Part shown: one piece after another, positions 1,207-62,186 of the stretch
How the letters are laid out: each line of letters begins with the position of its first letter
Numbering within the stretch: the stretch's first letter is position 1
DNA from: an uncultured virus (IMG/VR IMGVR_UViG_3300010157_000035)
Taxonomy: Duplodnaviria > Heunggongvirae > Uroviricota > Caudoviricetes
IMG/VR virus record: IMGVR_UViG_3300010157_000035
Span: 62,001-126,000 of that record
DNA: 64,000 nucleotides
Reading direction: 5' to 3' (one strand)
Position numbers and translations under genes: made by a program
The notes under the pieces: model-generated
Databases searched by the model: none
What the model was told of the DNA's origin: nothing
What the model saw: the letters and a program-made list of their open reading frames with translations, nothing else

Positions 1207-2355
1207 TTAGCAATTCCATCTACGACGTGCTTTACATATGGCCTTGTCTGGAGTTTTAGCACAGCTGATGTTGTGCATTTTCATTTGACCACGACTGCGA
1301 CTACAATAACTCTTGCGGCGCTTTGATGCTTTACTACCCTTCTTCAACTTTGAAGGCTTGGTAGTCACAGCAGTTTGTAGTTTTGATCCTGGGTGTTCTC
1401 TGCGATATGTTTTAACAGCCTTACGACTCATGCCATCTGTTTTGTCGCGATTGTTGGCTTTTTGCCATGCTTCGGTTTCTGATAGATTTTCTTTGGCAGG
1501 TTCCTGTGTCACAGCAAACACATACAACTCATCATCTGACAAACTTTCTAAATCTTCCCAGATTGCTTCTGCATCTACACCATTGCGATCAGCAAGATCA
1601 GTTATAATGCTTTCTATTAGATCAAACTCTTCAGACAATTCTTGTTGACCCCCGATAGCTTGTAGCATAGCACGAGCAACCACACGATCTTTTTCTTTTT
1701 CATCTTCGGGCAATTGAGCATACTGTTGAGTCATTAGTTTCTGACGCTGTGCTATCTTGGCTTGTAGTTTTTCTGGAGCCATTGTTTTGGAATCATCAAA
1801 CATCTGTGGATTTTTAACAAACGCCTGTGCTGTTACATTCCAACCTTTGTGGATGGCATCGCTAATTGCCTCAATATCTGTAACACCACGATCAATCATT
1901 TGTTTGGCAAAGGACGCAGATTTTAAGTTGGCCTGCCAACCAAATGTATTGCCTGGACTACTACGACCATAACCATATGCTGCATCCAATGCTGCATCAC
2001 TAATTTGTGCCAACTGTTGAACACTTAGTTGTTGACCTTCGTTAATGCTTTCATTGGGCACACAGTTACGAACTGGTCCACCATTTTTGCCCTTCTTGGT
2101 ACCTTCTGCGTGTTTACCTGGCCAACAACGGGTATATCCATTTGCGTCTTTTTGACCTTTCTTGATTTCCATGACATTGCCGTGTGTTTCACACATGCCA
2201 CAGTCTTCACACACCATTTCCATCTCAACCGATTCGTTGTGCTTTTTCTTACCAGCACAGTGCGCCCGTTGGCTGAAACCTTTGGGGTGGCTACAGTTGA
2301 TACTGCTTTTGTATTTTTGACTCCACTTTTCAGTTATAAATTCATTAGCTTTCAT
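1207..2355 (-). CDS. Modular putative head protein with a RyR-like domain and Cys/basic modules
   Basis: Starts MKANEFITE. IHKGW...YAQLPEDEKEKDR resembles a RyR repeat. Also CWPG...RNCVP and a C-terminal RRKSYCSRS...ARRRWNC basic module, separated by x-x-E junctions. Confidence 0.65.
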   Translation of the reverse strand: MKANEFITEKWSQKYKSSINCSHPKGFSQRAHCAGKKKHNESVEMEMVCEDCGMCETHGNVMEIKKGQKDANGYTRCWPGKHAEGTKKGKNGGPVRNCVPNESINEGQQLSVQQLAQISDAALDAAYGYGRSSPGNTFGWQANLKSASFAKQMIDRGVTDIEAISDAIHKGWNVTAQAFVKNPQMFDDSKTMAPEKLQAKIAQRQKLMTQQYAQLPEDEKEKDRVVARAMLQAIGGQQELSEEFDLIESIITDLADRNGVDAEAIWEDLESLSDDELYVFAVTQEPAKENLSETEAWQKANNRDKTDGMSRKAVKTYRREHPGSKLQTAVTTKPSKLKKGSKASKRRKSYCSRSRGQMKMHNISCAKTPDKAICKARRRWNC

Positions 2356-5300: not shown

Positions 5301-8300
5301 TCTGTTGTAGATTTCCCAAGGGCCTGGGCCGGTGGGTCGTAGACTGTTAGGCAGGGCGCCTTGATCAGCATCACCCACGGGTCTGGCACCAAACACCAAT
5401 CTAGCATCTACTGTGCCTATGCCGTGGGGCCCAAAATTGATATAATCATCTAATCTTGTGTTTACATCTGATTGATTGCGAGCAGAGAATTCAGTGTCGG
5501 GAATTACCTCACCAGTGCGTCTATCGAACAGTTCATAGGTTCCTGTGCCGGTCTGTGTTGCGCCAGGTTTGTCTGGTTGTTCATCGTAGGGCCGTAAAAC
5601 TTCAGCATCCATTTGAGCCAGAGTGTTGACCAAGAGCGGTTCGCCCCATTCTTTTGCAGCCTTCTGTTTGGCTTCTTCTTCTGAGGTAGCAACCACTTCC
5701 ACTGTGTAACTATATTGGCCAGCATTCTTGCCGTATTTGTAAACTTTCCACCACATTTTTTGGCCGTCATGCTTGCCACGCTTGATATTGCGTTGTAGTT
5801 GTGCTTGTTTGACAAAGCTTCTCAGTGCAGCTTTGGGAATCTTGCCAGCCACATAGTCACTGAAGTATCGGATAGTGTCAACATCTTTGTTACCGTCGCT
5901 CAACAACTTGTATAGTTTAGTCAAATATTCTTGGCGGTATGCATCAGGATCAAGTGCCGCACTCATAGCCACTGTGAAACGCAATAGAGTGTTTTCAATT
6001 TGATCAAAGTTCTCATCCAACCAGTCACCGCCGGGTGAGCGGAATTCAATGTGTCCGTCCTTGGTGTTGATTGACGTATACTTGCTGGTGATACCTGAGT
6101 GTATGGCCTTGCTGGCCAACTGGTCCATGTTGCCCTTCATCTTGTCCAACAGTTTGGCCGCATTGTCAGGATTGTCACGTACGGCTTTTTTAACAATGTC
6201 CAAGGCTGACTTGGCATAGGTATTGCCGGCACGCCCAAATGCATCCAACACATAATTGTCGCCCATGAGCAAGGCCAGTTTCACAAAGTCTAGTTTCTGT
6301 CTACTATAGTCGGGCACTGAGATGTTGATGTGCAAGCCGGTTGAATCATTGGTATAGCAACCATATTCTTTGGCCCAGGCCCGGACCTTGTTTAGGTCAC
6401 CTAGTATTTCATCAATGGGCAAGGGTGGTGATACAAACTCCAAGCCTTGGTCGCCGGAATTGTCCGGTTCTAAACTGCCATCGGGTTCAACCACATAACG
6501 CAACTGTGTAGGACTGGGTCTGATCACCGAGCCTGAATGATAGTTGCCACTGGCTCTAACATCACGCCCAATGGCATTTTCAAACTCTTGTGCCACATCT
6601 TCAATGTTAGCTTCGCCACCGCCTTGTGATCGCCAGTGCGGCCAATTCATACTGTATGAACCTTCAACATAACTCATGCGATCTAGATCTGCATCATCCA
6701 ACCAGTCGCTTTCATCATAACTTTCTTGATTTTCTTCACGGAACTCTTCATAGGCTGATTCATAGTCTCTACTATCAGGGTCAGCATGAATATTGGCTGC
6801 ATATTCTTCCAAGGCTTCGTTGCGAGCATCACCCGCCAAATCGTCGGGATTCCATACAGATTCATCCACATTGTTCTTGACCCATTCAGCAATGTATTCC
6901 TCACCACCTCGTGTCCAGTCCGTGGCTATTTTGTCATCCAACCACTCTAAATAGTCCTCGTGCATTTTTTCACGCATACGATCACAATCACGGCGACTGT
7001 TGTAGTCACCATCATAGAAAAAGTCATAGGCATCCTGTATGCTACGGCAACGCTCGTCCATGTCATAGTCAGGTTCTAAATCTTCGTCCCCACTGCCTTC
7101 AACATTGGGCACAATCATTTCAAATTCCATGCCTGCAATGGCACCGGTTTTAGCAGCCTCTCTGCGCAGGTTCTTGCTCCCCATGTTGATTTCAAATAGA
7201 TCTTGCTGTTTGAAATGATCCAGTTCTGTTGCCAACTGTTCAAACAGACCATTGGGGTTGGCTATCTGTGGATGACCTTGACTGTCGGTCTTGAGTTTTA
7301 ATTTATTGGCTTCTCGGCCCACTTGTCCTGGTTTAATGTCCACCGTGAGCGCCATACTATAGCGTGGATCTTTAGCCTGCCGCTTGGTAGGAATATAACC
7401 TGATGCACTTTCGTGAACTTCGTCGGCATGTAAATCATCGGCTTGGCCCACAGCAAAGTATTCTGGATGCATTCTAGCATAGTCACGCATGAGTATGCCG
7501 GCTCTGGCATTGGCTTCATTTTCCCATGGTGATCCAGTTTCGCCAGCAGTGCTATCCATGCGCTTGCCATCACGCTCGTGTTGATGTTTGTGTGTGAGTT
7601 CATGTGCCACAGTGCGCAGCACATCCATGATGTGACGATCGCCCCAGGCCACTTCCAACAGGTGTTGATCATTGATGTAGCGGCCAAAGGTGGTGTGTGT
7701 CACAGGCCATTGCGGATCTCGACGCAGTTTGATTGTGGGCATGGATTTGATCTTCAGTTCAGCAACACAGAAACCAATAAAGTCTTTGAGTATTGCTTCA
7801 TCTGACGGTACCGACGCTTCTTCAAGCGCCACTGTATCAGCTTCGACTACAGTAGGAGTGCGGAAGCCATATGTTGTTCGTGGTACAACTGCTTTTTCTT
7901 TGAGACTAAATTCTCTATCCTTGGCCGTATTGCGGGCATCGTATAACTGTTTAATCAAACCCTGACTACGCAACATTTTAAATGCTAAATTTTCTGGACC
8001 AAACTCACCGTGATTTTCCAATCCAGTCTGACGCATCTTTTTAATTTTTTCCGCTAAACGTGTTATGCGTTTTAAATTACCGGACTTAATGGCCGATTCA
8101 ATTTGCCGGCCAACTTTTTCAAACTTGTTGCGGGTGCTGGTATCATCCACTACACTCCGTACTCTACGTGGAACCTGTAACCAGTCGTTGTTTAGTATAG
8201 AATATATGCCCTGACTGACGTGCGGCTTGTCGGCATCTTGCACATATAGTTCTACATCGGCGCCACCAATTTTAATATCGTGTTGTTCGTTATACTGAAA

Positions 8301-8600
8301 CTTTTTGGCATCAAACAGTTCACGGTAAACAGGATTATCTGGCATGTCTACTACCAAGTGTAGGTCGATATCACTGTTGGGCGTATATGTATAAGCCGCA
8401 TTTGATCCGCTGATGGTAATGTCCTTAATTGCTAGATCTGTTACACCCAAAAACTCACGAAAGTCGTCGGCTATTTCCAGCAAGCGTTCGCGCACTTCGG
8501 GGCGCAAATGCTCACGATTGTCCCACAAGCGTGGATTCAATTGATCATTGAATTTAACAGCGTCGTCAAGATTATATGAGTTTAATTCCGTGATGTTCAT
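2352..8600 (-). CDS. 2082-aa polyvalent protein: nucleotidyltransferase, zincin peptidase, amidoligase-like domain, diverged repeats, ParB-like domain and unknown modules
   Basis: GS...SDIDL (Pol-beta NTase); VAHELTH (HExxH); GMEFE / DGSL / GLEFVSP / GLHINI / IEFR (COOH-NH2 ligase, amidoligase type); PPLLV...VLDGHHR (ParB/Srx). Confidence 0.8.
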   Translation of the reverse strand: MNITELNSYNLDDAVKFNDQLNPRLWDNREHLRPEVRERLLEIADDFREFLGVTDLAIKDITISGSNAAYTYTPNSDIDLHLVVDMPDNPVYRELFDAKKFQYNEQHDIKIGGADVELYVQDADKPHVSQGIYSILNNDWLQVPRRVRSVVDDTSTRNKFEKVGRQIESAIKSGNLKRITRLAEKIKKMRQTGLENHGEFGPENLAFKMLRSQGLIKQLYDARNTAKDREFSLKEKAVVPRTTYGFRTPTVVEADTVALEEASVPSDEAILKDFIGFCVAELKIKSMPTIKLRRDPQWPVTHTTFGRYINDQHLLEVAWGDRHIMDVLRTVAHELTHKHQHERDGKRMDSTAGETGSPWENEANARAGILMRDYARMHPEYFAVGQADDLHADEVHESASGYIPTKRQAKDPRYSMALTVDIKPGQVGREANKLKLKTDSQGHPQIANPNGLFEQLATELDHFKQQDLFEINMGSKNLRREAAKTGAIAGMEFEMIVPNVEGSGDEDLEPDYDMDERCRSIQDAYDFFYDGDYNSRRDCDRMREKMHEDYLEWLDDKIATDWTRGGEEYIAEWVKNNVDESVWNPDDLAGDARNEALEEYAANIHADPDSRDYESAYEEFREENQESYDESDWLDDADLDRMSYVEGSYSMNWPHWRSQGGGEANIEDVAQEFENAIGRDVRASGNYHSGSVIRPSPTQLRYVVEPDGSLEPDNSGDQGLEFVSPPLPIDEILGDLNKVRAWAKEYGCYTNDSTGLHINISVPDYSRQKLDFVKLALLMGDNYVLDAFGRAGNTYAKSALDIVKKAVRDNPDNAAKLLDKMKGNMDQLASKAIHSGITSKYTSINTKDGHIEFRSPGGDWLDENFDQIENTLLRFTVAMSAALDPDAYRQEYLTKLYKLLSDGNKDVDTIRYFSDYVAGKIPKAALRSFVKQAQLQRNIKRGKHDGQKMWWKVYKYGKNAGQYSYTVEVVATSEEEAKQKAAKEWGEPLLVNTLAQMDAEVLRPYDEQPDKPGATQTGTGTYELFDRRTGEVIPDTEFSARNQSDVNTRLDDYINFGPHGIGTVDARLVFGARPVGDADQGALPNSLRPTGPGPWEIYNRATGNSAANLSVDGRPITDRAQAQRMAMGSIAAENYDRFGVRTRGTESNSNWRIIYSATGETLNTVSGASRDQALAVLHDTARRNGVRPDVLSLQSAPASDDIPEVPVDVAQNFPQNRTDGRDTNYSFRDLFGNRYQTSSAPAGNSFSGQWKVMLDGEEVWRFRGVGNNQADANRIAQTWLQDQRSQGSLSPAPGADVEVVPIMTESVTESANPADTLYFFDVAKGGRSFDHLDLRIMGLRQTQKGRWYYQPGRDSTDLLTTATLKHLEKTLNVPARAWTKPVAETRIIDPEHVDVYYRPVPGSQGRRVVAQNIPVATLDALLQKLSDKYSVPVESFEWTPTEPITEAFDQPYTIQWSKQNGDWHATADLDDGSELIVLFMAQGDNSWMVEFERDENMEITGEGDAPRVFATVLTAMQQFIAKKKPARLNFSAEKEDDPTGSRARLYDRMLRRYVTGSGYDLARSDMPGGATYTLTKQAPAVAEGKVKLHTDPGYFGAEVDDTGFDSLPVVNIPANKLVGFEPDSKMNQPKSQANVEKIVAGLKKGDKLPPLLVRKYKNGYQVLDGHHRFWAYKLSGTKSIPVRIVADKDIEEIGKQGVAEGKLTESAIFLNPNTVIVGQQHGQPLELSPETLKKVQAIAAQHGAWYEGNGADRAYTRGVIDRYVGSFDDEVAKTASPNDPKWIYVLFANVDANNRIQRVGVDPKDTIFNRLMVTAQDNSFQGMGFTASALEKFLSLASEGKYDFVKMSQQPATEENLTQFLKAGEALMWPSNWEQYPNRAGKIARAATVDTRDQYLATRKAGVYVVGAGHLKAVQNISGKQGVAEGVDIGQEWMSDTELDQYVPDRLQQQWRELLGYDRNGNPSALWVNLTGGYEPDVRDPQHRALMVKVANKWFAAKKIPNVKFYDVKDADDELEWLVQIGQQDVAENFADGKGPGRPGDSQRHGIPKGATMAQLEKASHAKGRKGQLARWQLNMRRGHKK
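2517..3860 (-). repeat. Four dispersed linker repeats GTGGCGGAA (Val-Ala-Glu) inside the polyprotein
   Basis: Plus strand: ccttccgccacaccttg is identical at 2824-2840 and 3499-3515; cttgccttccgccac is identical at 3495-3509 and 3846-3860; ttccgccaca at 2517-2526. Confidence 0.85.
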
Positions 8601-28273: not shown

Positions 28274-28302
28274 ATTATACTACAAAGCACAGTTTTGGTC
28301 AA
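28274..28302 (-). promoter_or_regulatory. Sigma70-like promoter, predicted near-leaderless mRNA
   Basis: TTGACC-N17-TATAAT, followed by ATG 6 nt later. Confidence 0.75.
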
Positions 28303-29207
28303 CCGGCTGTGTTTGGGCAGTTGTATTGGCATCCAGGATGTTGATCCAGTGTTTGATAAAACTCTATGGTCTGCGGCTGTTGTAAAATTTCAGACAGGGT
28401 ATGTTGACGAATATCGTATTGCGGTTTGTTTTTACCAAATGGTGTTTTGTAATAAAATCTATGGTCGGCAAGATAGCAACATGGAATATAATGTCCGCCG
28501 GCTGTAATAAAATGCTCATGGCCGGTATGGCATTTGGGTGTCAATGCTGTTGCGGCATTTTCTAATTTCCATTTGGCCTGCACAGCGTAACGAGAACTAA
28601 TCAACGACTTGTCTGGGATCAAGTGCTGAGTTTTTTCGTCAAATCGGTCACTGAATCCCACATAGAAATTCTTGATGCCAATTGTCTGACTGAGTTTTTC
28701 TACCTGTTCAATATCAGTTTGATTGAACGCAAAAGGTATATATTTCCAATGACTATTGCAATTGGAACCAGCAACAACATCTAGTCCAACTCGAATTGAA
28801 TCCCAATCGGCGTTGATTCGATATTGGGTAAAATTTTCAGGAGTACCGTCGATACTGAACGTTATGTTGTCCTGGGACGATAACATATCAACTAACTCTT
28901 GCCACCAGTTATGTGTTTTATAACTGCCATTGGTGGTGATCATCACCACAGCACCTTTTTGTTTTAACCGCCGGACAAAATTGATAAAATCATAATGATA
29001 TATCGGATCACCGTAGTCGCCGCATAATTTTATACCTATATTGGTCAAATCAATATCAAGAAACTGCAACAATAAATCAATATCAAGACTTTGATTTTTC
29101 CAGTGCTGTGGCCACTGTTCAATAAATTGAGTTCTTGCACAACCAGGACATTTTAGTGTGCAAATATTAGTAGGTTCAATGTGAAATCCAGTAATTGATT
29201 CAATCAT
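28299..29207 (-). CDS. Radical SAM enzyme with SPASM/twitch-like C-terminus
   Basis: CTLKCPGC, GDP, TNGS, FSIDG, C-terminal PCC and CQYNC. Confidence 0.85.
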   Translation of the reverse strand: MIESITGFHIEPTNICTLKCPGCARTQFIEQWPQHWKNQSLDIDLLLQFLDIDLTNIGIKLCGDYGDPIYHYDFINFVRRLKQKGAVVMITTNGSYKTHNWWQELVDMLSSQDNITFSIDGTPENFTQYRINADWDSIRVGLDVVAGSNCNSHWKYIPFAFNQTDIEQVEKLSQTIGIKNFYVGFSDRFDEKTQHLIPDKSLISSRYAVQAKWKLENAATALTPKCHTGHEHFITAGGHYIPCCYLADHRFYYKTPFGKNKPQYDIRQHTLSEILQQPQTIEFYQTLDQHPGCQYNCPNTAG

Positions 29208-29213
29208 GAGTCA

Positions 29214-29495
29214 TTATGGTTGCATTGCGACTGCCTTGGGTAATTCATGACCGTTTTGTTGCAATAATCTTTCCATGATGTTGGTATAGAACGGATAATA
29301 GTAGCCAACAATTCGATCCCAGTCTTTAGGAATAGCAGTATCACGCAGGGCAGCTTTGAGAACTATTTGTTCTTTAAAGTCCAAAATTACACTGGCAGTT
29401 TGCCAATCTTTATTTTTGACTCGAGTTGCCACAGTCATGACTTCGTCGATTTTACCAGAGGGCTGGTAATAATATGTTAGCATCAGGTATCTCAT
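29214..29495 (-). CDS. Hypothetical protein
   Basis: 93-aa ORF in the operon. Confidence 0.6.
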   Translation of the reverse strand: MRYLMLTYYYQPSGKIDEVMTVATRVKNKDWQTASVILDFKEQIVLKAALRDTAIPKDWDRIVGYYYPFYTNIMERLLQQNGHELPKAVAMQP

Positions 29496-30628
29496 GTGAT
29501 GTGATTTTTTTGATATTTTTTTATGATTGAATGATATGTGTCTAGATTTTTCGCTTTAGGAGCGCAAAGACCACAACGACATACGGGTATTTTACATTGT
29601 ATTACAGGCTGTCCGTTATTTAGTTGTGTTTTTAGTTGGTTGATGATTTTGTCAGGCTCATCTAAATTTCCAATTGGCCCAACGGTTCCATCAAATGTCA
29701 TTTTGCAATCTTTATTGACATATACTTCTCCATTGACCTGTTTGATAAAAAGAAAAAATTGATTCACACTACAATACCAGTCTGGAAATTTATTATCGAG
29801 AACGTAATAGTGGCGTTCCTTGTAATTCTGATCTAGACAACTTTGTCTGCCGCCACAACAGGCTCGTCCGACCTGACTGAGATTGGAAGACGCACCAACA
29901 TCAGTATTGATAATTTCAAAGATTTTTGTTCCGTATGTTTTATTTTGATATATTGAATTAAACCATTTTATTTGTTGTTGATCATACGATTGATTTAAAC
30001 TGGCGCCGTCGATTTGTTTGGGCAATGAGCGTATTTGATTTTCATCAAGCCATAATAAAAAATCTTGAGATTGTTGAAATAGTTGCGGATTATCATGCAG
30101 CATCACAATACATTTTAATCTCTTACCCGAGTCTCTAATAGACAATAGATTGTGTTTAAACTGTTGTTTTTGACGGTCGGTACATTCCACATGAGAACTC
30201 ACGGTGAATTCATCAATATAAGGAATTATTTTTGATAATTTTTTATCGGATATTATGGCATTGGTTGTTGTAGTAACTGTTAATTTCCAACGGTCTGCGT
30301 ATGGTTGATATTTTTGTTGTATTTGAGATAATATTTCTACTATATCAGGGTGGTGTAAACTTTCTCCACCATACACATTGAGCACAACATACCGTAGTCC
30401 ATTAGGCTTGAATTGCATGTATTGATCCGCATATTCAAACATAAACTCTAGAGCTTGGATACATTTGTCTTTTGGAGGATGTTTGGTAGAGTTATCGTGT
30501 CCTCCGTTTAATCCTGAGTCACAATAACTACAATCAAGATTACACTTCATTGTGAGTTCCCAATCCAATAGAAAAGAGATTCTATTGTTGGGATCTATTG
30601 CAGGTTCAAGAACCTCATATGCCGGCAT
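29492..30628 (-). CDS. Radical SAM enzyme
   Basis: CNLDCSYC, YGGE, TTN, Cys-rich C-terminus (CCGGR, CRCGLCAPK). Confidence 0.85.
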   Translation of the reverse strand: MPAYEVLEPAIDPNNRISFLLDWELTMKCNLDCSYCDSGLNGGHDNSTKHPPKDKCIQALEFMFEYADQYMQFKPNGLRYVVLNVYGGESLHHPDIVEILSQIQQKYQPYADRWKLTVTTTTNAIISDKKLSKIIPYIDEFTVSSHVECTDRQKQQFKHNLLSIRDSGKRLKCIVMLHDNPQLFQQSQDFLLWLDENQIRSLPKQIDGASLNQSYDQQQIKWFNSIYQNKTYGTKIFEIINTDVGASSNLSQVGRACCGGRQSCLDQNYKERHYYVLDNKFPDWYCSVNQFFLFIKQVNGEVYVNKDCKMTFDGTVGPIGNLDEPDKIINQLKTQLNNGQPVIQCKIPVCRCGLCAPKAKNLDTYHSIIKKYQKNHIT

Positions 30629-32949: not shown

Positions 32950-33471
32950 TTAACGCAGAAATTCACGGCAGTCTAAATTATAGAATAGGCTGTCAATTCG
33001 ATGAACGCCCAATTTGTATAAAACATAACTGGCCACACTCGATCCACGTCCTACTCCCCAAATGACACAATTAATGGTCATAACATCCACTAGGTATTTT
33101 AAATATCGTAACAGGTCAAACAGATTGCGTTCTTGGAATAGCAATAATTCTTCCCCGCATCGCTGTAGTTCAGCTTCAGATTTACAAAGTCCAAGTATAT
33201 GTTCTGCAATATCCAACTGCTTATATTCCGCAGGCATGTGCCAACTATTTTGTTGTGTCAAATGAAACTCTGGAACTGCTATGTCGCTGTTATGAGGGAA
33301 GCTCCAACGAAACAATGATTCTGGCTTTTCAATCAGCCCGACTAAATTTTCAAGATCAACCGTTTCATCAACTGTCATGCGTTGTAAAGAATCGACAGTG
33401 CGCCCTTGCATCAACAAGTCACAAATGTCATCTTCTGAAAATACTAGTTCACCGAATTTATTTTGTTTCAT
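32950..33471 (-). CDS. dnaE: Stand-alone fragment of DNA polymerase III alpha (family C)
   Basis: WGVGRGSSVASYVLYKLGVHRIDSL..NL...EFL matches DnaE; the ORF ends before the catalytic PDID motif. Confidence 0.75.
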   Translation of the reverse strand: MKQNKFGELVFSEDDICDLLMQGRTVDSLQRMTVDETVDLENLVGLIEKPESLFRWSFPHNSDIAVPEFHLTQQNSWHMPAEYKQLDIAEHILGLCKSEAELQRCGEELLLFQERNLFDLLRYLKYLVDVMTINCVIWGVGRGSSVASYVLYKLGVHRIDSLFYNLDCREFLR

Positions 33472-34069
33472 TGGGCTGTTTAAAATCTGCAAACACTACA
33501 ACATTTCCTGGAGAGTTTGCTGCAGGTTCGTCGGACCAGGCCAATTCCAACTCTCTCCAATCTGTGCTGGTTGGTATAGATAATACTTTTTCAGATTTAT
33601 TAGCGAGCACAAAATCACTGTGAGCTAAGTCGGGACTAGTCCACCAGTCGGGTTGTTTGAATCCAGAAGTGTTTTCAAAATCAGAATGTAGATACGTCAT
33701 ATTAGCACCGTATGTGCTGGATATTTCAGTTTCCATAATAATCATACGATCTTCTGTAATGGCATTTAACTTGTAGTATAACATTATTCCTACCAATTGG
33801 TCAACAGGATCATTTGGCATGGTTGTAATATCGAGCCCAGCTTTGGAAAAAAGAGTGCATTGTGCTTTTTGGTTACTGTTGATAAAAATAGTATTGTCGA
33901 TTTGAGTGTAGACAAAATACTTAATTCGTTCAAATGAAATACTTTGGTCAACAGAATTTTCACTGTTGGTGGTCATCCACAATCTAAGAGTGTAGTTGTT
34001 CATGATCAGTTTATTGTCATGGTATATGCCCGCGGTAAATTGTATGTCGTGTTTAAGTCTAACGTTCAT
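33458..34069 (-). CDS. Hypothetical protein
   Basis: 203-aa coupled ORF. Confidence 0.6.
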   Translation of the reverse strand: MNVRLKHDIQFTAGIYHDNKLIMNNYTLRLWMTTNSENSVDQSISFERIKYFVYTQIDNTIFINSNQKAQCTLFSKAGLDITTMPNDPVDQLVGIMLYYKLNAITEDRMIIMETEISSTYGANMTYLHSDFENTSGFKQPDWWTSPDLAHSDFVLANKSEKVLSIPTSTDWRELELAWSDEPAANSPGNVVVFADFKQPNETK

Positions 34070-34287
34070 GAGATGTCGATTACTCCATCAAAGTTGGTGT
34101 CGGTGTTGCGGCGAATTTTTTCTTGGTATTTGTTTTGATGGCTTTCAATGGCCATTCTGAGTTGATTGCAAAGATGGCCATTGCCCATGCTGTAGGCTAT
34201 GCCCAATTTGCGACTTAGTTCGGTAATTTTTTCCAGCAGTTGTTCGGGTGTAAAATCTTCCAAACTACCAATTAAAGGATGTTCCAT
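34066..34287 (-). CDS. Hypothetical protein
   Basis: Helical 73-aa protein; TTGACT-N17-TACAAT promoter at 34294-34322. Confidence 0.6.
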   Translation of the reverse strand: MEHPLIGSLEDFTPEQLLEKITELSRKLGIAYSMGNGHLCNQLRMAIESHQNKYQEKIRRNTDTNFDGVIDIS

Positions 34288-34332
34288 ATACTGATTGTAT
34301 ATGATCTCGTGACAAAAGTCAATGAGTTTTGG

Positions 34333-35241
34333 TTAGCTAAATGTGGCGCCGTTGTTGCCAATACAGAACCATTTGCTTTGAGCTATGTTGGCCACATTGC
34401 TGTTGATATATTGTAGTGTGCAGGCCTGGCCAGTTGCAGTGAATAGGATATTTCCGGTGCCTGAAGTTTTCCATCCGGCATTGGAAACAGTGATTCTCAT
34501 GTTGCCCGAAGCTGAATACATGGCCAAAGTTTTAATTTGTCCAGGAACACCTGCAAGCAATTGAGCTGTAGTAGAAGTGACTGTGCTGAAATAACTGGTA
34601 GTTACTGCTGCATTAACGTTTGCAGTGTCGGTTAAATTTTCACTGCTGTTGTTGAATGGCTGTAACACTTTGTTAACTTCTCTAACTGTAATGGTACTTC
34701 CACCATTGCTGGTTGAAAATTCAAAACTATAAACACCAGTGGCAGCAAACGAAATAGTATTGGTTGAAGTATTAAGACCTTGTATTCCTGTGTTGTTTAC
34801 TGTGACTGCGGCCGGCAATACCAGTGTATGAATTGTGCTGGCCACTGTGACTTGAACCACTACAGATGCGGCCGCTCCAGCTGCTGGAAAATTAGTAAAA
34901 CTTAGACTTACAGCACCGTTGGTTGTTAGGGTTTGATAACTGGCCAAGGCATAGTTGATAACAGTTGTTCCGCTCACTGTGTTTAACACAACTACATTTT
35001 CGCTCATGTTAGATAATAGTGCATTGGATAAAGGACTGCCCAACATATCGTTGTCAAGTGTAGTTCCAGTTAATGCTGCTTTTAACACTGCTTTGCTTTG
35101 CAGATCTGAAATTTCGTCAGCTGCATATTGAAAGTTCGTAGAGGTATTTGTGAAATTATCACGGAATCCTTGCGAATTATTGTCCTGCCCGGCTACTGGG
35201 TAAGCACCGTTAATGTTGTTTGGGTTAATTGCACTTGTCAT
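34333..35241 (-). CDS. Virion structural protein (baseplate/fibre-like)
   Basis: YPVAGQDNNSQGFRDNF N-terminus; T/S/N-rich; late promoter upstream. Confidence 0.65.
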   Translation of the reverse strand: MTSAINPNNINGAYPVAGQDNNSQGFRDNFTNTSTNFQYAADEISDLQSKAVLKAALTGTTLDNDMLGSPLSNALLSNMSENVVVLNTVSGTTVINYALASYQTLTTNGAVSLSFTNFPAAGAAASVVVQVTVASTIHTLVLPAAVTVNNTGIQGLNTSTNTISFAATGVYSFEFSTSNGGSTITVREVNKVLQPFNNSSENLTDTANVNAAVTTSYFSTVTSTTAQLLAGVPGQIKTLAMYSASGNMRITVSNAGWKTSGTGNILFTATGQACTLQYINSNVANIAQSKWFCIGNNGATFS

Positions 35242-35287
35242 ATGTATTCCTAATTTATCCTATAATATTTATCAAACTCTAATAAGG

Positions 35288-35734
35288 CTAAGAATAATAA
35301 CTTAAAGTTACAATTCCTTGGGCACCTGCACTATTAATGCTGCCGCCATTTGATCCAGCAGATACAACACCACCGGTGGGCACTAAACAATTGCCGTTTT
35401 CTCCAGAGTATGCGCCATTGTCGCCACCGGTCACAAGTCCACCTGCACCACCAAATTGGCCACCACCTCCACCACCTCCACCTGCGCCGTCTCCGCTGCC
35501 TTTGCCTTGCCCATACCCACCATATGTGGTACCAGCATTACCCGGAGTGTTTTGATTGGGGAGGCCAGCACTATACTGCCCGCCACCGCCCCCGCCACCA
35601 CCACCACCGGCCACAGCTAGTATTACGGTGTTTACAGAAACTACCGAAGCGGCACCGCCACCGCCACCCCCTCCGCTATATCCAGAGCCCCCAAAACTTC
35701 CACCTAACCCCCCGTAATAATCTGTAATGGCCAT
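35288..35734 (-). CDS. Glycine-rich adhesin, C-terminal half
   Basis: Polyglycine runs, ILAVAGGGGGGGG, ends GIVTLSY; has its own AGGA RBS. Confidence 0.65.
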   Translation of the reverse strand: MAITDYYGGLGGSFGGSGYSGGGGGGGAASVVSVNTVILAVAGGGGGGGGGGQYSAGLPNQNTPGNAGTTYGGYGQGKGSGDGAGGGGGGGGQFGGAGGLVTGGDNGAYSGENGNCLVPTGGVVSAGSNGGSINSAGAQGIVTLSYYS

Positions 35735-35742
35735 ATTTTTTC

Positions 35743-35943
35743 CTACAAACTATGTTTCCAAGCGGTGTAGGCTTGAATAATTGGACTATCGTCAACCGGC
35801 ATACCGCTTATGATACTGACCAATAAGGGTGCGTTTGGTATCACTTTTATCAGAACATCAGCATTGTCGGACAACATGCGAAACACTTGGGCCTGATCTG
35901 TTTTGTTTAAAGTTAATATATTTTGTGTTAATAGATCTATCAT
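35743..35943 (-). CDS. Small hypothetical protein between the adhesin halves
   Basis: 66 aa; ATGA overlap with the upstream gene. Confidence 0.6.
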   Translation of the reverse strand: MIDLLTQNILTLNKTDQAQVFRMLSDNADVLIKVIPNAPLLVSIISGMPVDDSPIIQAYTAWKHSL

Positions 35944-36878
35944 GGTTTTTTTCCTTCAATCAATCGTCCTAGTTCGGCTACAAGTTTAAGTAAGACAAAT
36001 ACAGGAATCAACATCAACCCTTTTCCAAATCCAGCTGGTTTGTTGCTTGGCCCAACGACTCGTTGCCATACACCGACTATTTTACATATCGGTGTTCCGA
36101 TGGCCATAATGGCTTTACCTGTATTGTTGGGCAACATACTTTCTGACATTTGATAGGCCATTTCTTCGGCCCACGGTGTAGCAATAGCTTGTGCCCATCG
36201 AGTAGACCAAGACCGGGCAGCATTGCTAAAATCTTCATCTGACATCCAAGGCATCATTTTAGGTCCGCGTCCGTCCATCCAGTCCACTACTATTTCAGCC
36301 CAGGCGCGATAACCATTGTAGATATCTGGATGAGATTTAACTAACTCTGCACCAAATGCTTGATCTGCAAGATATATTTCTTTGCTCATTAGTCCAAGTT
36401 CATATAGTTTGGTGCAAATAATCTTGCCACCCCCACCGCCACCGCCGCCGCCGGATCCACCTGCGCCACCTCCGCCTCCAACATAGGCGTTGATTACATC
36501 TCCTGGGCTTGCAGGTATATTTCCACCGGTGATAGTTAATCCAGGATACCCTACTCGCCCTGGCTGGCTGTCTGGGCCACCTCCACCACCTCCACCACCA
36601 GTCATTGTAACAATGGTCAAATTACCAGAAAAAGTTGCTGGAAGAATTATAAAATTACTTCCCACATTATTAAAACTAACAGTAGTTAATCCTGTGCGTT
36701 TAGCTCCATAAAAATCGCCAAGGCTAATAGGACCCGACGCTGGTACATTTGGTGCATAATCAGTGTCTAGCACATAGGCACCACCACGATAATAATTCTC
36801 TAACTTGATTGGTGTTGGGCCGCCAAACTCTGCCTGTATGTCAACGAGACTTATAGGTCCTGAAGTAGGCAAAGTCAT
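35940..36878 (-). CDS. Glycine-rich adhesin N-terminal half fused to a Cys-initiated helical domain with a C-terminal TM/basic tail
   Basis: MTLPTSGPISL.DIQAEFGG...GPISLGDFYG; Gly-rich; then G8-KIICTKLYELG...GYRAWAE...LMLIPVFVLLKLV..GKKP. Confidence 0.65.
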   Translation of the reverse strand: MTLPTSGPISLVDIQAEFGGPTPIKLENYYRGGAYVLDTDYAPNVPASGPISLGDFYGAKRTGLTTVSFNNVGSNFIILPATFSGNLTIVTMTGGGGGGGGPDSQPGRVGYPGLTITGGNIPASPGDVINAYVGGGGGAGGSGGGGGGGGGKIICTKLYELGLMSKEIYLADQAFGAELVKSHPDIYNGYRAWAEIVVDWMDGRGPKMMPWMSDEDFSNAARSWSTRWAQAIATPWAEEMAYQMSESMLPNNTGKAIMAIGTPICKIVGVWQRVVGPSNKPAGFGKGLMLIPVFVLLKLVAELGRLIEGKKP

Positions 36879-37933
36879 TACAAGGTTCCAGATCCAGTTA
36901 TATTGCCGATGGTGGTAAAGTTGCCACTTGAATCTAACTTAGCAATATTACTTCCGCTAAAACTAAAAAACAATGTATTTCCACTAGGAGTTATAGACCA
37001 GCCGCCAGATAAACCAACTGCTGACACATTGCCAATGGCGCCACCGGTGATTGAAACAGCATTGGCATTTTGGCTAGACATAGTTCCCAGACTGGCACTT
37101 TGGAAGGCAGTTATTTGATTGTTAACAAAAGCCGCGGTGGCCACTTGATTGTTGTTTGTGCCAGTTGATGCTGTTGGTGCTGTAGCTATTCCAACCAATT
37201 GAGTTGTACCAGTAACTGATACATTAGCCGCCACTGATAAATTACCACCCGTAGTAATATTGCCCTGTGCTGATATTGTACCTAGCACACCCAATGCATT
37301 AGATCCTTTGTTATAGGTCAATCCGCCAACAGCATCAACGTTGCCAGAGGTATTGAATAAAACTTGCGAAGTTGATCCAGGTGCACCTGTGATGTTTCCA
37401 ACAATGCTGCCCTGAAAAGCTCCCACAAACTTGCCAGCAGTCACAATGTTACCAGTGGCTGACACAATACCTTGTGCCAGCACATTACCTTGAGTGCTGA
37501 TATCACCAGTGGAAGTTATGTTTCCGCCAGCATTGACATTACCAGTAATTGACGCAGTTGAACCAAGGCCTAAGATACCTGTGACTGATATGTTGCCAAC
37601 AGTGGCATTGCCGGTGGCACTAATCGATCCAGCTGTTAATAAGTTACCACCTGTAACATTGCCTGTAGCACTGACACGCCCGCCGGTGGCAATGTTGCCT
37701 ACTGCAATATTACCAGTGATTGATACAGCGCCATTGGTTACCAAGTTCCCACCTGTGACATTGCCAGCGACTGACAACGAAGTCAACGTGCCAACACTGG
37801 TAATATTTGGCTGTGCAGCATTGGCAACATTGCCTGCTGTGTTGGCAAATGCTATTGGGGCAGCAAAATTTGCATCTAGCTGACTTAATGGAATTGGGCT
37901 GGATTCTGTGCCGAATGTGAATGGAACTGTCAT
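36878..37933 (-). CDS. Tail fibre-like protein
   Basis: GNVTGGN / SATGN repeats, AAQPNITSVGTL, ATTA-like motif. Confidence 0.75.
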   Translation of the reverse strand: MTVPFTFGTESSPIPLSQLDANFAAPIAFANTAGNVANAAQPNITSVGTLTSLSVAGNVTGGNLVTNGAVSITGNIAVGNIATGGRVSATGNVTGGNLLTAGSISATGNATVGNISVTGILGLGSTASITGNVNAGGNITSTGDISTQGNVLAQGIVSATGNIVTAGKFVGAFQGSIVGNITGAPGSTSQVLFNTSGNVDAVGGLTYNKGSNALGVLGTISAQGNITTGGNLSVAANVSVTGTTQLVGIATAPTASTGTNNNQVATAAFVNNQITAFQSASLGTMSSQNANAVSITGGAIGNVSAVGLSGGWSITPSGNTLFFSFSGSNIAKLDSSGNFTTIGNITGSGTL

Positions 37934-37936
37934 TTT

Positions 37937-40399
37937 TTATCCTAAAATATTGCGTCGGGGGAATACGAGATATTTATCGTATACATTGGTGTTAGAATAC
38001 ATGTCAACTGGCGCAGTGAACTGCATACTTCCGCCGTCAAACGTAGTACCCGGTGGTGTTGCATAAGTCCAATTGGTCAGTGTAAAATAGTCATCTTCCC
38101 AGGTGGTTATTGCATCTGCGTCGTTGATCCAGCTGCCGATATTTTGACCATTTTGATTCCAATATGCAGGATCAGTGGGCAACGTTCCTGGCACAGTCGC
38201 TTGTATACATTCGTATATTTTATTAATTCTGACGTCGCCGCGTATAGTTTGATATTCCACAACCTGCCCAACTTGGTATGATTCAGTCGAAGAGAATATA
38301 GGTAATCCAATAAGGTCAAACGTGGTCAAGCTAGCTGGGTACGGGATCGCTGAATTGTCGGAATAGCCCCAATGTTGATCGGCTCTATTCCAATTCCGGG
38401 TTAATAGATTGTCTAATTCGTAACGATCAACTTCAAAGTCAATCACGTTGAGTTGGTCAATAAAATCTTGACCAATATAATAGGCCAATTGTTCACCGCG
38501 TCCGGGATTGGCATAGGCTATGACCCAGGCCGGAGTAAAGCCCAAAGTTTGGCCATTGGCCTGTTTACAAATCATCCACAAGGGCAATGTATTTGAAATT
38601 TGTCCTACTACATCAATAACTTGATCTCGCATGTTGATCAAACTGTTAGGATATACTGTGCTGACACTCACTGTTGAGTTTTTAGGATACGGTAATTCGG
38701 CAGTGACAGGATAGGGTAGTGTGACATCTTTACTGACACTTTGGCCTTGTGCGTTGACCAGGTCATCAATGATTCTACTGTAGACCACTTCGTAGATGAC
38801 CGTTCCTGAACTATCAATGGCCTGTGCAACTTCGATAGAACCCAGCACAAGATTTTTCCAATAGTGGTTAATGTCTAAACTGGCTACATATTCATCCAAT
38901 GTGGCGGCACTAAGACCATACGCATGATAATAAGTTACATTTTTTGCCACACCAAAGTTGGGATCGGTTGGGCGATATAATAAGTTTTGTTGAAAAATAT
39001 CACTATTTTGTAGCAGACTATTGATCACGGCCCGATCATTGAGTGGTGGCATGGCCTGAATATAAAGATTGTCGTAAGGCTCGTTATAGGCTCGGTTGAC
39101 TCGAATTGAAAATACTTTGTTAGAGCTGATTAAACCGTCAACACTATAAGCGGTAACTGTAAAATAGTAAACCAAATCAAATGTAGTAGTGTTGTTGTCA
39201 AATGTAGTTGTGCCCATGTCCAAGGCAAAAGTATTAAAACTTACTCGCCCGGCAATTTCACCCGAGGGTAATAATTCTAAACCTTGAGGTAATAAACTAT
39301 CACTGCCTGACAGCAGTTGATATTGTAGTGTTACACCACTTCTATTTACAGCCGCTACATAAAATGTGCTAGTGGCACCGTTGTCGATTGTTCCAAGATT
39401 GTCAGGAACCAACCAAGTTACATCAGCACTTACTGGTCCGATTACAGTTAATGAAAACGCATATGGAGGACTAATGTAGTCAGGGTAGGCAACTAATTGC
39501 AGATAAATGTTAAAAGAATACGTTTGATTGTTTATACCCAATGGAGGAATGTTTCCATAGAACCAACCTGAATTGGGATCTAATGTCAGTCCAGGTATGT
39601 CGGCGTCAGTAGAATACTGAAATTGATCACCATTTAAATCTACACCATTGAATTGATAAGCAAAGAAATTGTCACTACGCACAGTACCAATTGATCCGGG
39701 AGTATTTAATAATACTGGCACAAGTATAGGTGTTCCGTCGGCAGTAATAAATGTGTTGTCTGAGGTGATATATGTATCGTCAGCCGAAAGACTATTTCTA
39801 CTCCATACATATATACTGAATGATCTATTAACAGTTCCGTTTACTGTGCCATCGGTCAGTTGTAGTGTAAACGCATAGTCAGTGTTTGCGCTACTAAGGC
39901 CAATTAAACCAGATATCAATCCGGCAGTGCTGATAGTTAAACCAGGAGGTAAGCTGCCTGCTATCAGTTTAACTATGGTATTATCCGGGCCTGTGTATTG
40001 TATTTGCAAATCTGTAATTAAACTGGCATCATACAACTGAGCCAGTTGCCCTGCCGGTGTAACAAATGCAGGAATCGCGGTATTGGCCACTTCAATGGTA
40101 AACGTTCTGTCGGCCAGTCGATTGATTACCATACCGGTTCGTGTATACGCTCTTACGGCAAACTTACTCAGAGTGTCTACTGGCACATCAAGTGGAACGC
40201 CTTGAATTGTTGCCCGGGCGTTTGGAACTCCGGTGATAATTCCTGTTTCATTAATCTGCATACCGCGAGGTAATGCACCAGCTATTAGCTGATAATATAC
40301 AGTATTGTCAGCTGTGGCCAATAAAGGAAGACTGTAAAAGACTCCTTCGGGTATGGTCCCTAGGCTACCAGCAGGAGTTTGCCAAACCGGTTGTGACAT
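37937..40399 (-). CDS. Baseplate wedge-like protein with repeated Ig-like domains
   Basis: Repeated PVW.TPAG.LG / G.LP.GL / G.I.G units; ends DKYLVFP. Confidence 0.7.
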   Translation of the reverse strand: MSQPVWQTPAGSLGTIPEGVFYSLPLLATADNTVYYQLIAGALPRGMQINETGIITGVPNARATIQGVPLDVPVDTLSKFAVRAYTRTGMVINRLADRTFTIEVANTAIPAFVTPAGQLAQLYDASLITDLQIQYTGPDNTIVKLIAGSLPPGLTISTAGLISGLIGLSSANTDYAFTLQLTDGTVNGTVNRSFSIYVWSRNSLSADDTYITSDNTFITADGTPILVPVLLNTPGSIGTVRSDNFFAYQFNGVDLNGDQFQYSTDADIPGLTLDPNSGWFYGNIPPLGINNQTYSFNIYLQLVAYPDYISPPYAFSLTVIGPVSADVTWLVPDNLGTIDNGATSTFYVAAVNRSGVTLQYQLLSGSDSLLPQGLELLPSGEIAGRVSFNTFALDMGTTTFDNNTTTFDLVYYFTVTAYSVDGLISSNKVFSIRVNRAYNEPYDNLYIQAMPPLNDRAVINSLLQNSDIFQQNLLYRPTDPNFGVAKNVTYYHAYGLSAATLDEYVASLDINHYWKNLVLGSIEVAQAIDSSGTVIYEVVYSRIIDDLVNAQGQSVSKDVTLPYPVTAELPYPKNSTVSVSTVYPNSLINMRDQVIDVVGQISNTLPLWMICKQANGQTLGFTPAWVIAYANPGRGEQLAYYIGQDFIDQLNVIDFEVDRYELDNLLTRNWNRADQHWGYSDNSAIPYPASLTTFDLIGLPIFSSTESYQVGQVVEYQTIRGDVRINKIYECIQATVPGTLPTDPAYWNQNGQNIGSWINDADAITTWEDDYFTLTNWTYATPPGTTFDGGSMQFTAPVDMYSNTNVYDKYLVFPRRNILG

Positions 40400-52307: not shown

Positions 52308-52577
52308 TCATTCATCAACTCCGAAATGTTCTCTAATCTCTACAGCACAATCCTGCCTACCTGACCTAGCATCAATGTTATCTTCGCCATCTACATCTTG
52401 ACAAATAGAAACACATTCTCGCACAATCAACTCGGCGAACTTTTCCAAATCAATAGACGCATACATCTTATCACCAAGTTGTGGATAGACATTGTCTGAC
52501 CATTCAACTCTGCCCCAATTACCAATAGTTGCAACAGGACTTACCTGTTCAGCAAGTTCGTTTATTCGTTTGTTCAT
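52308..52577 (-). CDS. Small hypothetical protein
   Basis: MNKRINELAEQ...LEKFAELIVREC...IREHFGVDE. Confidence 0.65.
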   Translation of the reverse strand: MNKRINELAEQVSPVATIGNWGRVEWSDNVYPQLGDKMYASIDLEKFAELIVRECVSICQDVDGEDNIDARSGRQDCAVEIREHFGVDE

Positions 52578-53482
52578 TCTTCAACTCCGAAATGTTTCTT
52601 GTTTAGTATAACACAATCAGCAGGTGTAGTCAAATCAGACTTAACCAAGTTTTCTATAGTTCTTCTAGACAACCCAGTTTTTAATCTGGCTTCTGACATT
52701 GATGAATAAACTACACCATCGATTTCAATAGATTTGGCATTGTGTGGAAGTCTTCCATACATAGGATTTTTTGATCCTAGTTTTGACTCAACTTTTAACG
52801 CACTTTTCTTTTCTATTTTACCTTTATACCATCCTTCGGGGATGTTATCTAGATTATTACAGACAGAATTAGTTGTTCCGTTTGTGATAAAAAATAATCC
52901 AAACATTGGATTAAGTTCGCCCGGTTGGCTAGATTTTTCTTTCTGATAATCTGCCTGTCCCCAGTAAAATCCTTCCGGAAGAATATTATGTTTTATTTGG
53001 TATGACACATTCCCATCAGTAATCCACTTCTTCCCCTTGTTGCCGGCACCGTGCTTCTTAATGGTAAGAGGTGAAAATCCCGGATAAAATCCTTCAGGAA
53101 TACTATCACCTGCGAATATCGCTTTGTCAACAACTCCATTGGTAACTGGAATCTTTCCGAGGTGTAAGTTACTCATTCGTTCGGCTAAAAGTTTTTTAGT
53201 AGAATCATAAATCTTACTACCGTTCTTACCAGACATCAATACTAACGCAAATGCCATTTTACCTCTAGACTCACCTTCAGTCATTCTTACTAAAAGTTTA
53301 TGACAGATAAAATGTTCTCTAGCAGTTAAGTTAACTAGATTACCAGAAGAATTATCCCCGCCCATCGAACGAGGAATAATATGATGAGTTTCTTTGTAAT
53401 GGTCTTTTGATAGCACTCTTGATCTAGCAGTTTCTATTATAGAAAAGTAGATACGAGTGTATCGGTTGGTGATAAATATCAT
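52574..53482 (-). mobile_element. Free-standing HNH homing endonuclease
   Basis: ETHHIIPRSMGG...NLV.LTAREHFICH; repeated (W/F)IT(D/N)G...IPEG(F/W)Y.G DNA-binding modules; NPMYG; own late promoter; visibly AT-rich. Confidence 0.85.
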
Positions 53483-53566
53483 TGCTGATTGCTCCTTTGT
53501 AGCATTAGAGTAGTTGGGGATTGCCGTCCCGTGAACTACACTATTATTTATCACCAATCCTTCCAT

Positions 53567-61976: not shown

Positions 61977-62186
61977 CTACCAGGTGCTTACATCAGTGAT
62001 ATCAATTGTGGTGTCAACATCTTTGTCGTTATCGTTGAACAGATTGAATGTAACTACCAGTCCTGTGCCAATGCCACTGGTGTGATCCACTTTGATCGTA
62101 AACCATTCTACTTCTTTAAAATGAGTATATATCTCGGTTAACTTGCCCAGCTGTTTACGGTTAAGTGCCAATTCAGTCATTACCAA
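61977..62186 (-). CDS. Hypothetical protein
   Basis: SGIG...DITDVSTW. Confidence 0.55.
   Translation of the reverse strand: MVMTELALNRKQLGKLTEIYTHFKEVEWFTIKVDHTSGIGTGLVVTFNLFNDNDKDVDTTIDITDVSTW

Follow-up and report, generated by a model that had tools for sequence, protein, structure and literature searches.

A two-gene cassette with an undescribed, predicted helical domain splits a glycine-rich fibre-tip adhesin gene of an uncultured jumbo phage

In a stretch of 64,000 nucleotides (nt) from an uncultured tailed virus (IMG/VR record IMGVR_UViG_3300010157_000035, positions 62,001 to 126,000; hereafter the window), a gene for a glycine-rich fibre-tip adhesin is interrupted in mid-domain by a cassette of two genes, one encoding a C-terminal, predicted helical domain, here called KIICT, and the other a small partner protein. 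The three open reading frames (ORFs) that result, A, B and C, lie head to tail on the minus strand within a series of fibre-type genes, and all of them are intact. Comparisons with related viral stretches show that the cassette was inserted between definable boundaries, that the arrangement recurs and is held by purifying selection, and that the cassette moves and swaps between genes. We consider it fairly probable that a single adhesin gene of ~300 amino acids (aa) has been cut in two by this cassette and that its halves reassemble non-covalently, i.e., that the adhesin is a case of genes in pieces. The features of the locus, in window coordinates, are as follows.

36878..35940, minus strand: ORF A, 312 aa
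36426..36878, minus strand: N-half (ORF A, aa 1-151), attachment-type module and first half of the glycine-rich domain
35940..36425, minus strand: KIICT domain (A residues 152-312 and stop), fused in frame after a Gly run; six predicted helices; ends in a hydrophobic helix and GKKP
36414..36416, minus strand: codon of Cys155, third residue of the KIICT domain, invariant in the family
35943..35743, minus strand: ORF B, the partner gene, 66 aa
35735..35742, minus strand: spacer from the B stop to the C start, 8 nt, purine-rich (TAGGAAAAAATATG), restarts translation of the C-half
35734..35288, minus strand: ORF C, the C-half, 148 aa; second half of the glycine-rich domain, with the terminal strand ...GIVTLSYYS
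35720..36425, minus strand: inserted cassette, 706 bp, Lys152 (ORF A) through Asp5 (ORF C), taking the place of six codons; limits set by the two alignments given below

ORF A opens with an attachment-type module (approximately aa 1-60, 'GPISLxDIQxEFGG...TDYAPNVP'), and its residues 1-71 match phrog_30374. The glycine-rich segment that follows passes through GGGGGGGGG into KIIC, the sequence around Cys155 being ...GGGGGGGGGKIIC, and the C-terminal end reads ...LMLIPVFVLLKLVAELGRLIEGKKP. The A stop and the B start share the sequence ATGA, whereas C begins 8 nt beyond the B stop and is preceded by AGGA; the B/C spacer is similar to the A/B junction (direct repeat D5). An original prediction, made from the sequence alone, had listed three intact ORFs, a coupled 66-aa gene, a Cys codon at 36416-36414 and a hydrophobic end followed by GKKP, all of which are present as stated, and its claim that the C-half has a ribosome-binding site of its own agrees with the AGGA ahead of the C start.

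The evidence for an insertion comes from an uninterrupted relative. The N-terminal part of A was turned into a profile, which led to 561 related viral stretches, 80 of which were kept. Two of the loci (L048, 106,918 bp, and L049, 340,172 bp) carry at the same position a single 298-aa gene, flanked by homologues of the 351-aa ORF upstream and the 302-, 73- and 203-aa ORFs downstream in the window, and thus provide the uninterrupted homologue at the same locus that is expected of a gene in pieces. Smith-Waterman alignments were assessed against 300 composition-preserving shuffles, with the L048 gene (3001-3897, 298 aa) as the target. Residues 1-151 of A align with residues 1-150 of the uninterrupted protein (80/149 identical, z-score 29.7) and residues 6-148 of C with its residues 157-298 (88/141 identical, z 21.7), whereas the KIICT part of A (153-312) finds no match (z 0.2). 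Because A 1-151 and C 6-148 are collinear with one gene and KIICT is left unmatched, the 706-bp cassette splits the glycine-rich adhesin domain at a Gly tract. Within it lie the KIICT domain with its stop codon, the B gene, and a ribosome-binding site plus the start codon and five codons, and only five non-homologous residues, MAITD, open C. The comparison confirms that one adhesin gene is encoded here as two separate predicted proteins with an insert in mid-gene, and it thereby upholds the proposal that a single adhesin domain is divided by a Cys-started domain and a linked small gene. The 340,172-bp record with the uninterrupted gene is 98% complete, and both KIICT and B are absent throughout it; the split-gene records that are 100% and 93% complete hold exactly one KIICT and one B each.

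Three other features of the locus were considered and set aside. The inverted repeat I1 (26 nt, 77% complementary), taken as a candidate terminal repeat of the cassette, is at chance level in five relatives. RNA splicing was rejected, since Rfam shows no intron or other RNA family in 34000-38000. As for a deleted, fused form in the sequencing data, every joint has sides of only 20-24 nt at Gly-tract repeats, a kind of joint against which the tool itself cautions, and these joints were not counted as evidence; the runs listed as carrying the stretch include no RNA dataset.

The three-ORF order is repeated in L005, L006, L007 and L041, as well as in L003, which is identical in sequence, and the split state is maintained across five lineages. 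In addition, contigs from a run of another study (X2) are identical to the window over 35686-36393, which spans both gene junctions. With the same order in relatives and identical contigs across both junctions, the arrangement is not peculiar to this assembly. The ratio of nonsynonymous to synonymous substitution (dN/dS) was computed against four lineages wherever synonymous divergence (dS) was computable, dS ranging from 0.8 to more than 3, i.e., beyond saturation. It amounts to 0.09-0.11 for the N-half, 0.08-0.10 for KIICT (with the exception of one swapped KIICT domain at 0.34), 0.12-0.18 for B and 0.10-0.19 for C. All parts are under purifying selection, and the selection on both halves (0.09-0.19) is what genes in pieces would lead one to expect. 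Recurrence and selection together bear out the view that the split is maintained and not the mark of a broken gene.

Judged from the sequences compared, the cassette shifts and swaps between genes. L041 combines an N-half, B and C of the window type with a KIICT of a divergent subtype (dN 0.74, versus 0.19-0.31 in the flanks). In L004, an unrelated N-part of 408 aa is followed by a Gly linker with KIICT, by B and by a C that extends only to residue 46, and then by an unrelated gene; this segment is ~90% identical to the window in the DNA alignment, as estimated by eye, and the homology begins and ends within Gly-tract-coding repeats. L010 carries two cassettes in tandem. The Gly tracts of the window are imperfect direct repeats of each other, and because the limits of homology fall at such repeats, we infer that the cassette moves by recombination between them. 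Contig depth in four freshwater runs shows a 10- to 20-fold peak at 36397-36453 (Gly tract and start of KIICT); most of the matching pieces consist only of the Gly-tract repeat of other genes, and no conclusion was drawn from the peak.

The divided domain is related to proteins that match PF21722 over its full length. Three loci (L050, L058 and L067) share the N-terminal module and match PF21722 from position 4/5 to 220-224, with 28.6-50.3 bits. Residues 60-152 of A and ORF C lie side by side, collinear, adjacent and non-overlapping, on the PF21722 region of protein P0175 (z 10.8 and 7.4) and likewise on that of P0071 (z 8.0 and 7.3); C also aligns with P0142 (91-234, z 15.5) and P0197 (95-246, z 13.6). 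A homologue search with C alone found one protein only, with glycine bias as the probable cause, and the uninterrupted homologue has no match among PDB sequences. Where a PF21722 match abuts KIICT or Hint, it stops inside the profile in 12 of 12 proteins (at positions 31, 104, 111, 111, 113, 114, 120, 167, 167, 182, 183 and 184 of 226), whereas it extends to 220-224 in the three uninterrupted proteins, and the next genes in L032 and L034 open with the missing PF21722 part (z 8.1 and 10.5). This pattern of truncation fits a cassette able to recombine only at internal Gly tracts; it also fits a KIICT domain that is functionally tied to an incomplete domain. Downstream of other cassettes, four ORFs beginning 'MAGGGAGG...' are mutually homologous (z 8-28). 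Within the window itself, A 84-150 and C 33-92 are weakly similar (z 3.1, a score reached by 0/500 shuffles), and MAFFT also placed C on the N-half, a likeness that suggests an internal duplication of the glycine-rich domain.

One locus, L034 (3428-6887), contains a longer series of this kind. Its gene 1 (353 aa) consists of a truncated Gly-rich domain and KIICT; gene 2 (557 aa) opens with the missing part (z 10.5), continues with a second truncated domain and KIICT, and is followed by a small ORF; gene 3 is a Gly-rich ORF of 102 aa. To judge by this order, each gene seems to supply what the preceding one lacks, in the manner of a daisy chain.

KIICT is an undescribed family of predicted helical domains with an invariant cysteine. 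A phmmer search against 1.84 billion representatives recovered 741 clusters (50% identity) at an expectation value (E) <=1e-3, of which 205 reach E<=1e-10. All known members come from phage and metagenome sequences, and the domain nearly always occupies the C-terminus, or a position near it, of proteins of 69-1859 aa. The N-parts ahead of it are diverse (PF21722, DUF4815, He_PIG, Laminin_G_3, or none known), and they are joined to it by linkers that are mostly poly-Gly, in some proteins poly-Pro, and in a group of T4-like phage proteins Asn-Cys-rich; a stretch of the last kind is absent from ORF A of the window. In seven representatives (P0143, P0158, P0163, P0165, P0185, P0203 and P0232), the linker is a hydrophobic segment of ~20 residues directly before KIICT; these seven are large phage structural proteins without a signal peptide. 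In five of 150 representatives, the linker is the end of a Hint domain (..VHN), confirmed by Pfam in four of them (P0175, P0142, P0197 and P0265) as a separate domain upstream of KIICT, and NCBIfam finds an intein C-terminal motif in two of the five. P0175, which runs from PF21722 (profile 2-167) through Hint to KIICT, has Lys-Lys after HN, so that splicing is not expected there; P0265 has Cys at this point.

Among the 135 aligned KIICT domains, Cys3, Asp20, Gly37 and Tyr38 are invariant (135/135), and there is no conserved His. The Cys always directly follows [KS]-[IV]-I, behind a flexible linker. AlphaFold2, given a 60-row alignment, predicts six helices (2-8, 14-30, 32-49, 62-92, 100-123 and 132-156 in domain numbering) with a predicted local distance difference test score (pLDDT) of 94.9 and a predicted template-modelling score (pTM) of 0.87. 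The last helix is hydrophobic, with a maximum of 1.95 in a 19-residue Kyte-Doolittle window, for which 1.6 is the usual threshold; 85 of the 135 domains reach >=1.6, and the last helix is absent in 25. Membrane anchoring by this tail is plausible from its composition.

Searches of Pfam, NCBIfam, PHROG, PADLOC and PDB sequences with KIICT gave no match, the PDB sequences having been searched both with a single sequence and with a profile. Compared by Foldseek, the model has no match in the PDB at E<=1e-3 (Bcl-2 rows are at chance level) and meets only family members in BFVD, and the ESM Atlas yields only unnamed viral clusters for it. The suggestion in the original prediction that the Cys domain is a Hint or CFI-box-CTERM sorting domain is therefore not borne out, as there is no Pfam or NCBIfam match and the domain comprises 160 aa in six predicted helices. 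The NEL E3 ligase domain (IpaH/SspH/SlrP) was rejected as an identity: NEL domains give the best VIA-align wide rows (Z-scores 6.2, 4.8, 3.4 and 2.9), but such scores are lower than the tool states for chance matches of helical models, the Cys of KIICT is followed by Thr-Lys and not by x-Asp, the NEL catalytic motif being Cys-x-Asp, and there is no Pfam match. The Peptidase_S74 profile has no Pfam match on KIICT at E<=0.1, and Peptidase_S74 is not among the matches listed for the KIICT model by Foldseek against the PDB and by VIA-align wide, lists of a kind that do not exclude a family. One carrier, Synechococcus phage SynMITS9220M01, was found among 50,697 phage records; two pattern scans of prokaryote genomes found no relatives, and a search of the literature found no publication on the domain.

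The partner gene accompanies KIICT widely. With an iterated profile, a B-type ORF was found to start within -43 to +3 nt of the stop in 32 of 39 KIICT genes from 36 viral loci, the remaining genes being followed by a different small ORF or by none. In L013:4504-4926, L034:6164-6577 and L001:4519-4860, B is replaced by a small ORF of a second type (114-140 aa); it has a Cys/His-rich start in two of these three and is not matched by the B profile. B itself has no match in Pfam, PHROG, NCBIfam, PADLOC or PDB sequences, its ESM Atlas rows are sub-threshold, its 75 relatives are all annotated 'hypothetical', and it contains no membrane segment. Its position directly downstream of a fibre gene is that of a tail fibre assembly chaperone (Tfa), whereas its sequence has no match to the Tfa families of Pfam and PHROG. 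In a further set of loci (L014-L031, L036 and L038, at about 3500-5900 in each), KIICT proteins of ~300 aa have the linker ..NCTNNQNCFTYNCNCS in place of poly-Gly, and the KIICT gene is followed by two tandem B-type paralogues (94-134 aa) and a conserved protein of ~230 aa that starts ..DRYHWYQNAQNMFWQSPIWE.

The intact adhesin consists of an N-terminal attachment module and one glycine-rich domain of the PF21722 kind, a receptor-binding tip with TNF-like and Gly-rich parts whose structure has been solved in gp24 of cyanophage Pam3, and the cassette entered this domain at a Gly-tract-coding repeat. The cassette supplies the 160-aa, six-helix KIICT domain, in frame with the N-half via the Gly run, the translationally coupled 66-aa B, and the ribosome-binding site, start codon and five codons with which translation of the C-half is restarted. 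The halves, made separately, would then rejoin on the virion as one domain without a covalent bond. More tentatively, KIICT and B may form an accessory C-terminal module for holding or assembly, possibly associated with the membrane via the hydrophobic last helix, which would cap or park the N-half, incomplete by itself, before the C-half joins it. The fold itself would not require KIICT and B, since both are missing from a near-complete relative. The Pam3 precedent, a Gly-rich tip dependent on a chaperone whose gene lies immediately downstream, makes a role in holding or assembly the most economical guess. It stays a guess, because KIICT is also found behind unrelated N-parts and a close relative does without it.

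Several observations weigh against reassembly of a split domain with KIICT as its accessory. KIICT also stands behind N-parts other than Gly-rich ones (that of L004, Asn-Cys linkers, DUF4815 and He_PIG proteins), so capping specific to a split domain cannot be its general function, and the invariant Cys is without explanation if the gene is simply in pieces. A and C, taken singly, do not match PF21722 (Gly_rich_2) at E<=0.1, or at E<=1 in a six-frame search, and the uninterrupted L048 protein does not match it either; glycine bias and half-length are the likely explanation of the miss by A and C. AlphaFold2 models the uninterrupted homologue poorly (pLDDT 52.7), so that one compact fold from both halves is no more than presumed, and the halves, as weak internal repeats, might each fold separately. 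The 'MAGGGAGG...' ORFs at the four other loci reach a z of at most 4.5 against the missing half-domains and are no more than candidates for them. Finally, no mobility enzyme is recognisable in KIICT or B by Pfam, PHROG or NCBIfam, and the mode of movement is read only from the Gly-tract repeats.

The hydrophobic tail could have a different meaning. The C-terminal helices of KIICT might enter the host membrane, either as a tail anchor or as a buried hairpin of the Bcl-2 or colicin kind, with B keeping KIICT in solution or preventing harm from it. In that case the N-half would be a copy parked in the membrane, serving for instance exclusion, receptor masking or timing, and no part of the virion. 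The tail maximum of 1.95, the 85/135 domains that reach 1.6 and the extra hydrophobic segment directly before KIICT in seven representatives are consistent with this, as is the combination of a small downstream gene with, in some members, a Hint domain before the C-terminal domain. The latter recalls polymorphic toxins, in which Hint precedes the C-terminal domain and a small gene lies directly downstream. However, it is the C-terminal domain that is conserved in KIICT proteins and the N-part that varies, the reverse of polymorphic toxins; the last helix is absent in 25/135 domains, all helices are confidently placed in one body (pTM 0.87), B is without a membrane segment, PADLOC gives no match, and the Bcl-2 rows of Foldseek are at chance level. 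A membrane function of this kind is, in our judgement, unlikely. KIICT and B could also be selfish, spreading by recombination at Gly tracts at no benefit to the phage, while the split adhesin works regardless or is heading for loss. Presence and absence of the cassette do vary among close relatives, it hitchhikes and swaps, and it always sits at internal Gly tracts. Nevertheless, purifying selection on KIICT and B is strong across a synonymous divergence that has reached saturation, both halves are under selection too, the family is very large and conserved, and no nuclease or recombinase is encoded that could drive its spread, so that we regard a purely selfish element as distinctly unlikely.

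Covalent processing appears to us very improbable. The original prediction had the Cys domain cleaved, possibly with transfer to the C-half. In its most developed form, KIICT would be a new all-helical cysteine autoprocessing module, the Cys of which forms a thioester with the preceding residue; the N-half, once cut off, would pass to the C-half's amino end or to a different acceptor, in the membrane or wall, giving a tip that is rejoined or anchored after translation, and Hint would be an alternative engine for the same step in relatives. Such a scheme would account for the invariance of the Cys (135/135 domains) and for its place right after [KS]-[IV]-I, with a flexible linker ahead, and it is also suggested by the Hint domains at the junction (one with Cys after HN, the others with Lys) and by the many downstream ORFs that begin with Met-Ala/Pro and then Gly runs. 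Yet the predicted fold is all-helical, with no Hint fold and no family match, and KIICT has neither a conserved His nor another usual catalytic partner, its other invariant residues including Asp20 and Tyr38. The C-half carries only five non-homologous residues, which leave no room for a C-intein; the N-termini of the putative acceptors vary, with Ala or Pro after Met and no conserved nucleophile; and the near-complete relative manages without the system. No sign of cleavage or ligation was found in the sequences, and as KIICT is neither a Hint nor a sorting domain, the idea is unsupported. Part of it survives in relatives: real Hint domains lie between the Gly-rich part and KIICT in 5/150 representatives (four by Pfam), which suggests that some relatives use separation at this junction, whereas there is none on the window's A.

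The proposed non-covalent reassembly has a parallel in nrdA of Aeromonas phage Aeh1, which is split by mobE and in which, as PMC3045599 describes, tails derived from the insert are needed for assembly of the pieces. In both cases a phage gene is cut into two ORFs by an insert and both pieces are kept; for Aeh1, that source attributes the restored function to protein assembly and not to splicing (PMC3045599). Unlike in Aeh1, the insert here is without a homing endonuclease, the 'tail' of the N-half is a whole conserved domain of 160 aa that occurs on hundreds of other proteins, and what is interrupted is structural, a receptor-binding domain, whereas nrdA codes for an enzyme; assembly of the halves is here the presumed outcome. 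Fractured genes, in which split inteins have a free-standing endonuclease between their halves, come mainly from phage and metagenome sequence according to PMC2677866, and they share with the window the succession of an N-half with an extra domain, a small free-standing gene and a C-half. In contrast to them, KIICT is predicted to be helical and not Hint (A has no Hint hit), the C-half has no C-intein, and B is not a recognisable endonuclease; where Hint occurs in relatives of KIICT, it is in one piece and upstream of the domain.

With respect to the adhesin itself, the tip formed by gp24 of cyanophage Pam3 has Gly loops interleaved with a TNF-like sandwich and depends on the chaperone gp25, encoded just downstream, according to the passages of PMC9608196 on this tip. 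Both systems thus combine a glycine-rich receptor-binding tip with a small gene directly downstream, and the Pam3 helper, in those passages, has a helical part. The differences are that gp24 is one chain and that gp25 is there described as a Tfa-type chaperone with a beta-sandwich; the relation of the window's domain to gp24 is suggested by PF21722 and by weak ALK_LTK_GRD matches in relatives. The same source, in its part on intramolecular chaperones, lists C-terminal domains of the Peptidase_S74 kind (phage K1F endosialidase, T5 pb1) that are removed by self-cleavage (PMC9608196). KIICT resembles these as a conserved C-terminal domain behind very different fibre parts, and self-removal in its family would fall to Hint, in some members only. 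In contrast, there is no sequence match between the two, KIICT has an invariant Cys where the residue of the Peptidase_S74 family is Ser, and it has a hydrophobic tail and a partner gene. The cultured carrier SynMITS9220M01 shows the three-gene layout as well, in gp028-gp029-gp030 (MT408532.1): a Gly-rich part is joined by a linker to a KIICT-type domain that has a hydrophobic tail, after which come a small ORF and a Gly-rich protein. It differs from the window in that its linker is poly-Pro/poly-Arg and its small ORF is of another type, unmatched by the B profile; the proteins are annotated as hypothetical. The paper on this genome is reportedly an announcement only.

The viral record that holds the window measures 130,621 bp, with an estimated completeness of 38%; because complete relatives measure 320-340 kb, the phage of the window is a jumbo phage. 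Genes of phage type in the window include those for an endolysin, a clamp loader, PhoH, a Lon-type protease and fibre-type proteins, and the runs carrying the stretch are labelled as freshwater or lake metagenomes. On either side of the three ORFs lie the following genes.

36878..37933, minus strand: upstream neighbour, fibre-type protein, 351 aa; its stop overlaps the A start; weak tail-fibre PHROG matches; its homologue precedes the uninterrupted gene in L048
34333..35241, minus strand: downstream neighbour, fibre-type protein, 302 aa; in L048 its homologue comes after the uninterrupted gene and ahead of the counterparts of the 73-aa and 203-aa ORFs

Farther away, two genes of the radical-SAM type (PHROG matches; 28299-29207 and 29492-30628, minus strand) are situated about 5-7 kb downstream of C. 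An ORF of 180 aa (32950-33492, minus strand) spans the whole 171-position profile of the phage DNA polymerase family phrog_11127, and by this match may be a small piece of a split polymerase. An ORF of 2082 aa (2352-8600, minus strand) contains a ParB-like stretch and several PHROG families of unknown function. A homing endonuclease gene (52574-53566, minus strand; phrog_655, E 1.9e-41) indicates that classical mobile elements are present elsewhere in the genome.

Receptor-binding tips determine the host range of phages among bacteria. In this phage a tip domain is routinely split between two genes, always through one undescribed cassette. Hundreds of fibre genes from uncultured aquatic phages carry that cassette, as does one cultured cyanophage. 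KIICT is a large family whose fold is predicted with confidence; it has Cys, Asp and Tyr positions that never vary, and a small gene is dedicated to it as a partner. With neither a family model nor a solved relative, it presents a clear target for structural and biochemical work. If the halves reassemble, the arrangement would be a natural two-piece adhesin and a second, structural case of genes in pieces after that of a phage enzyme, brought about by an element without a recognisable endonuclease.

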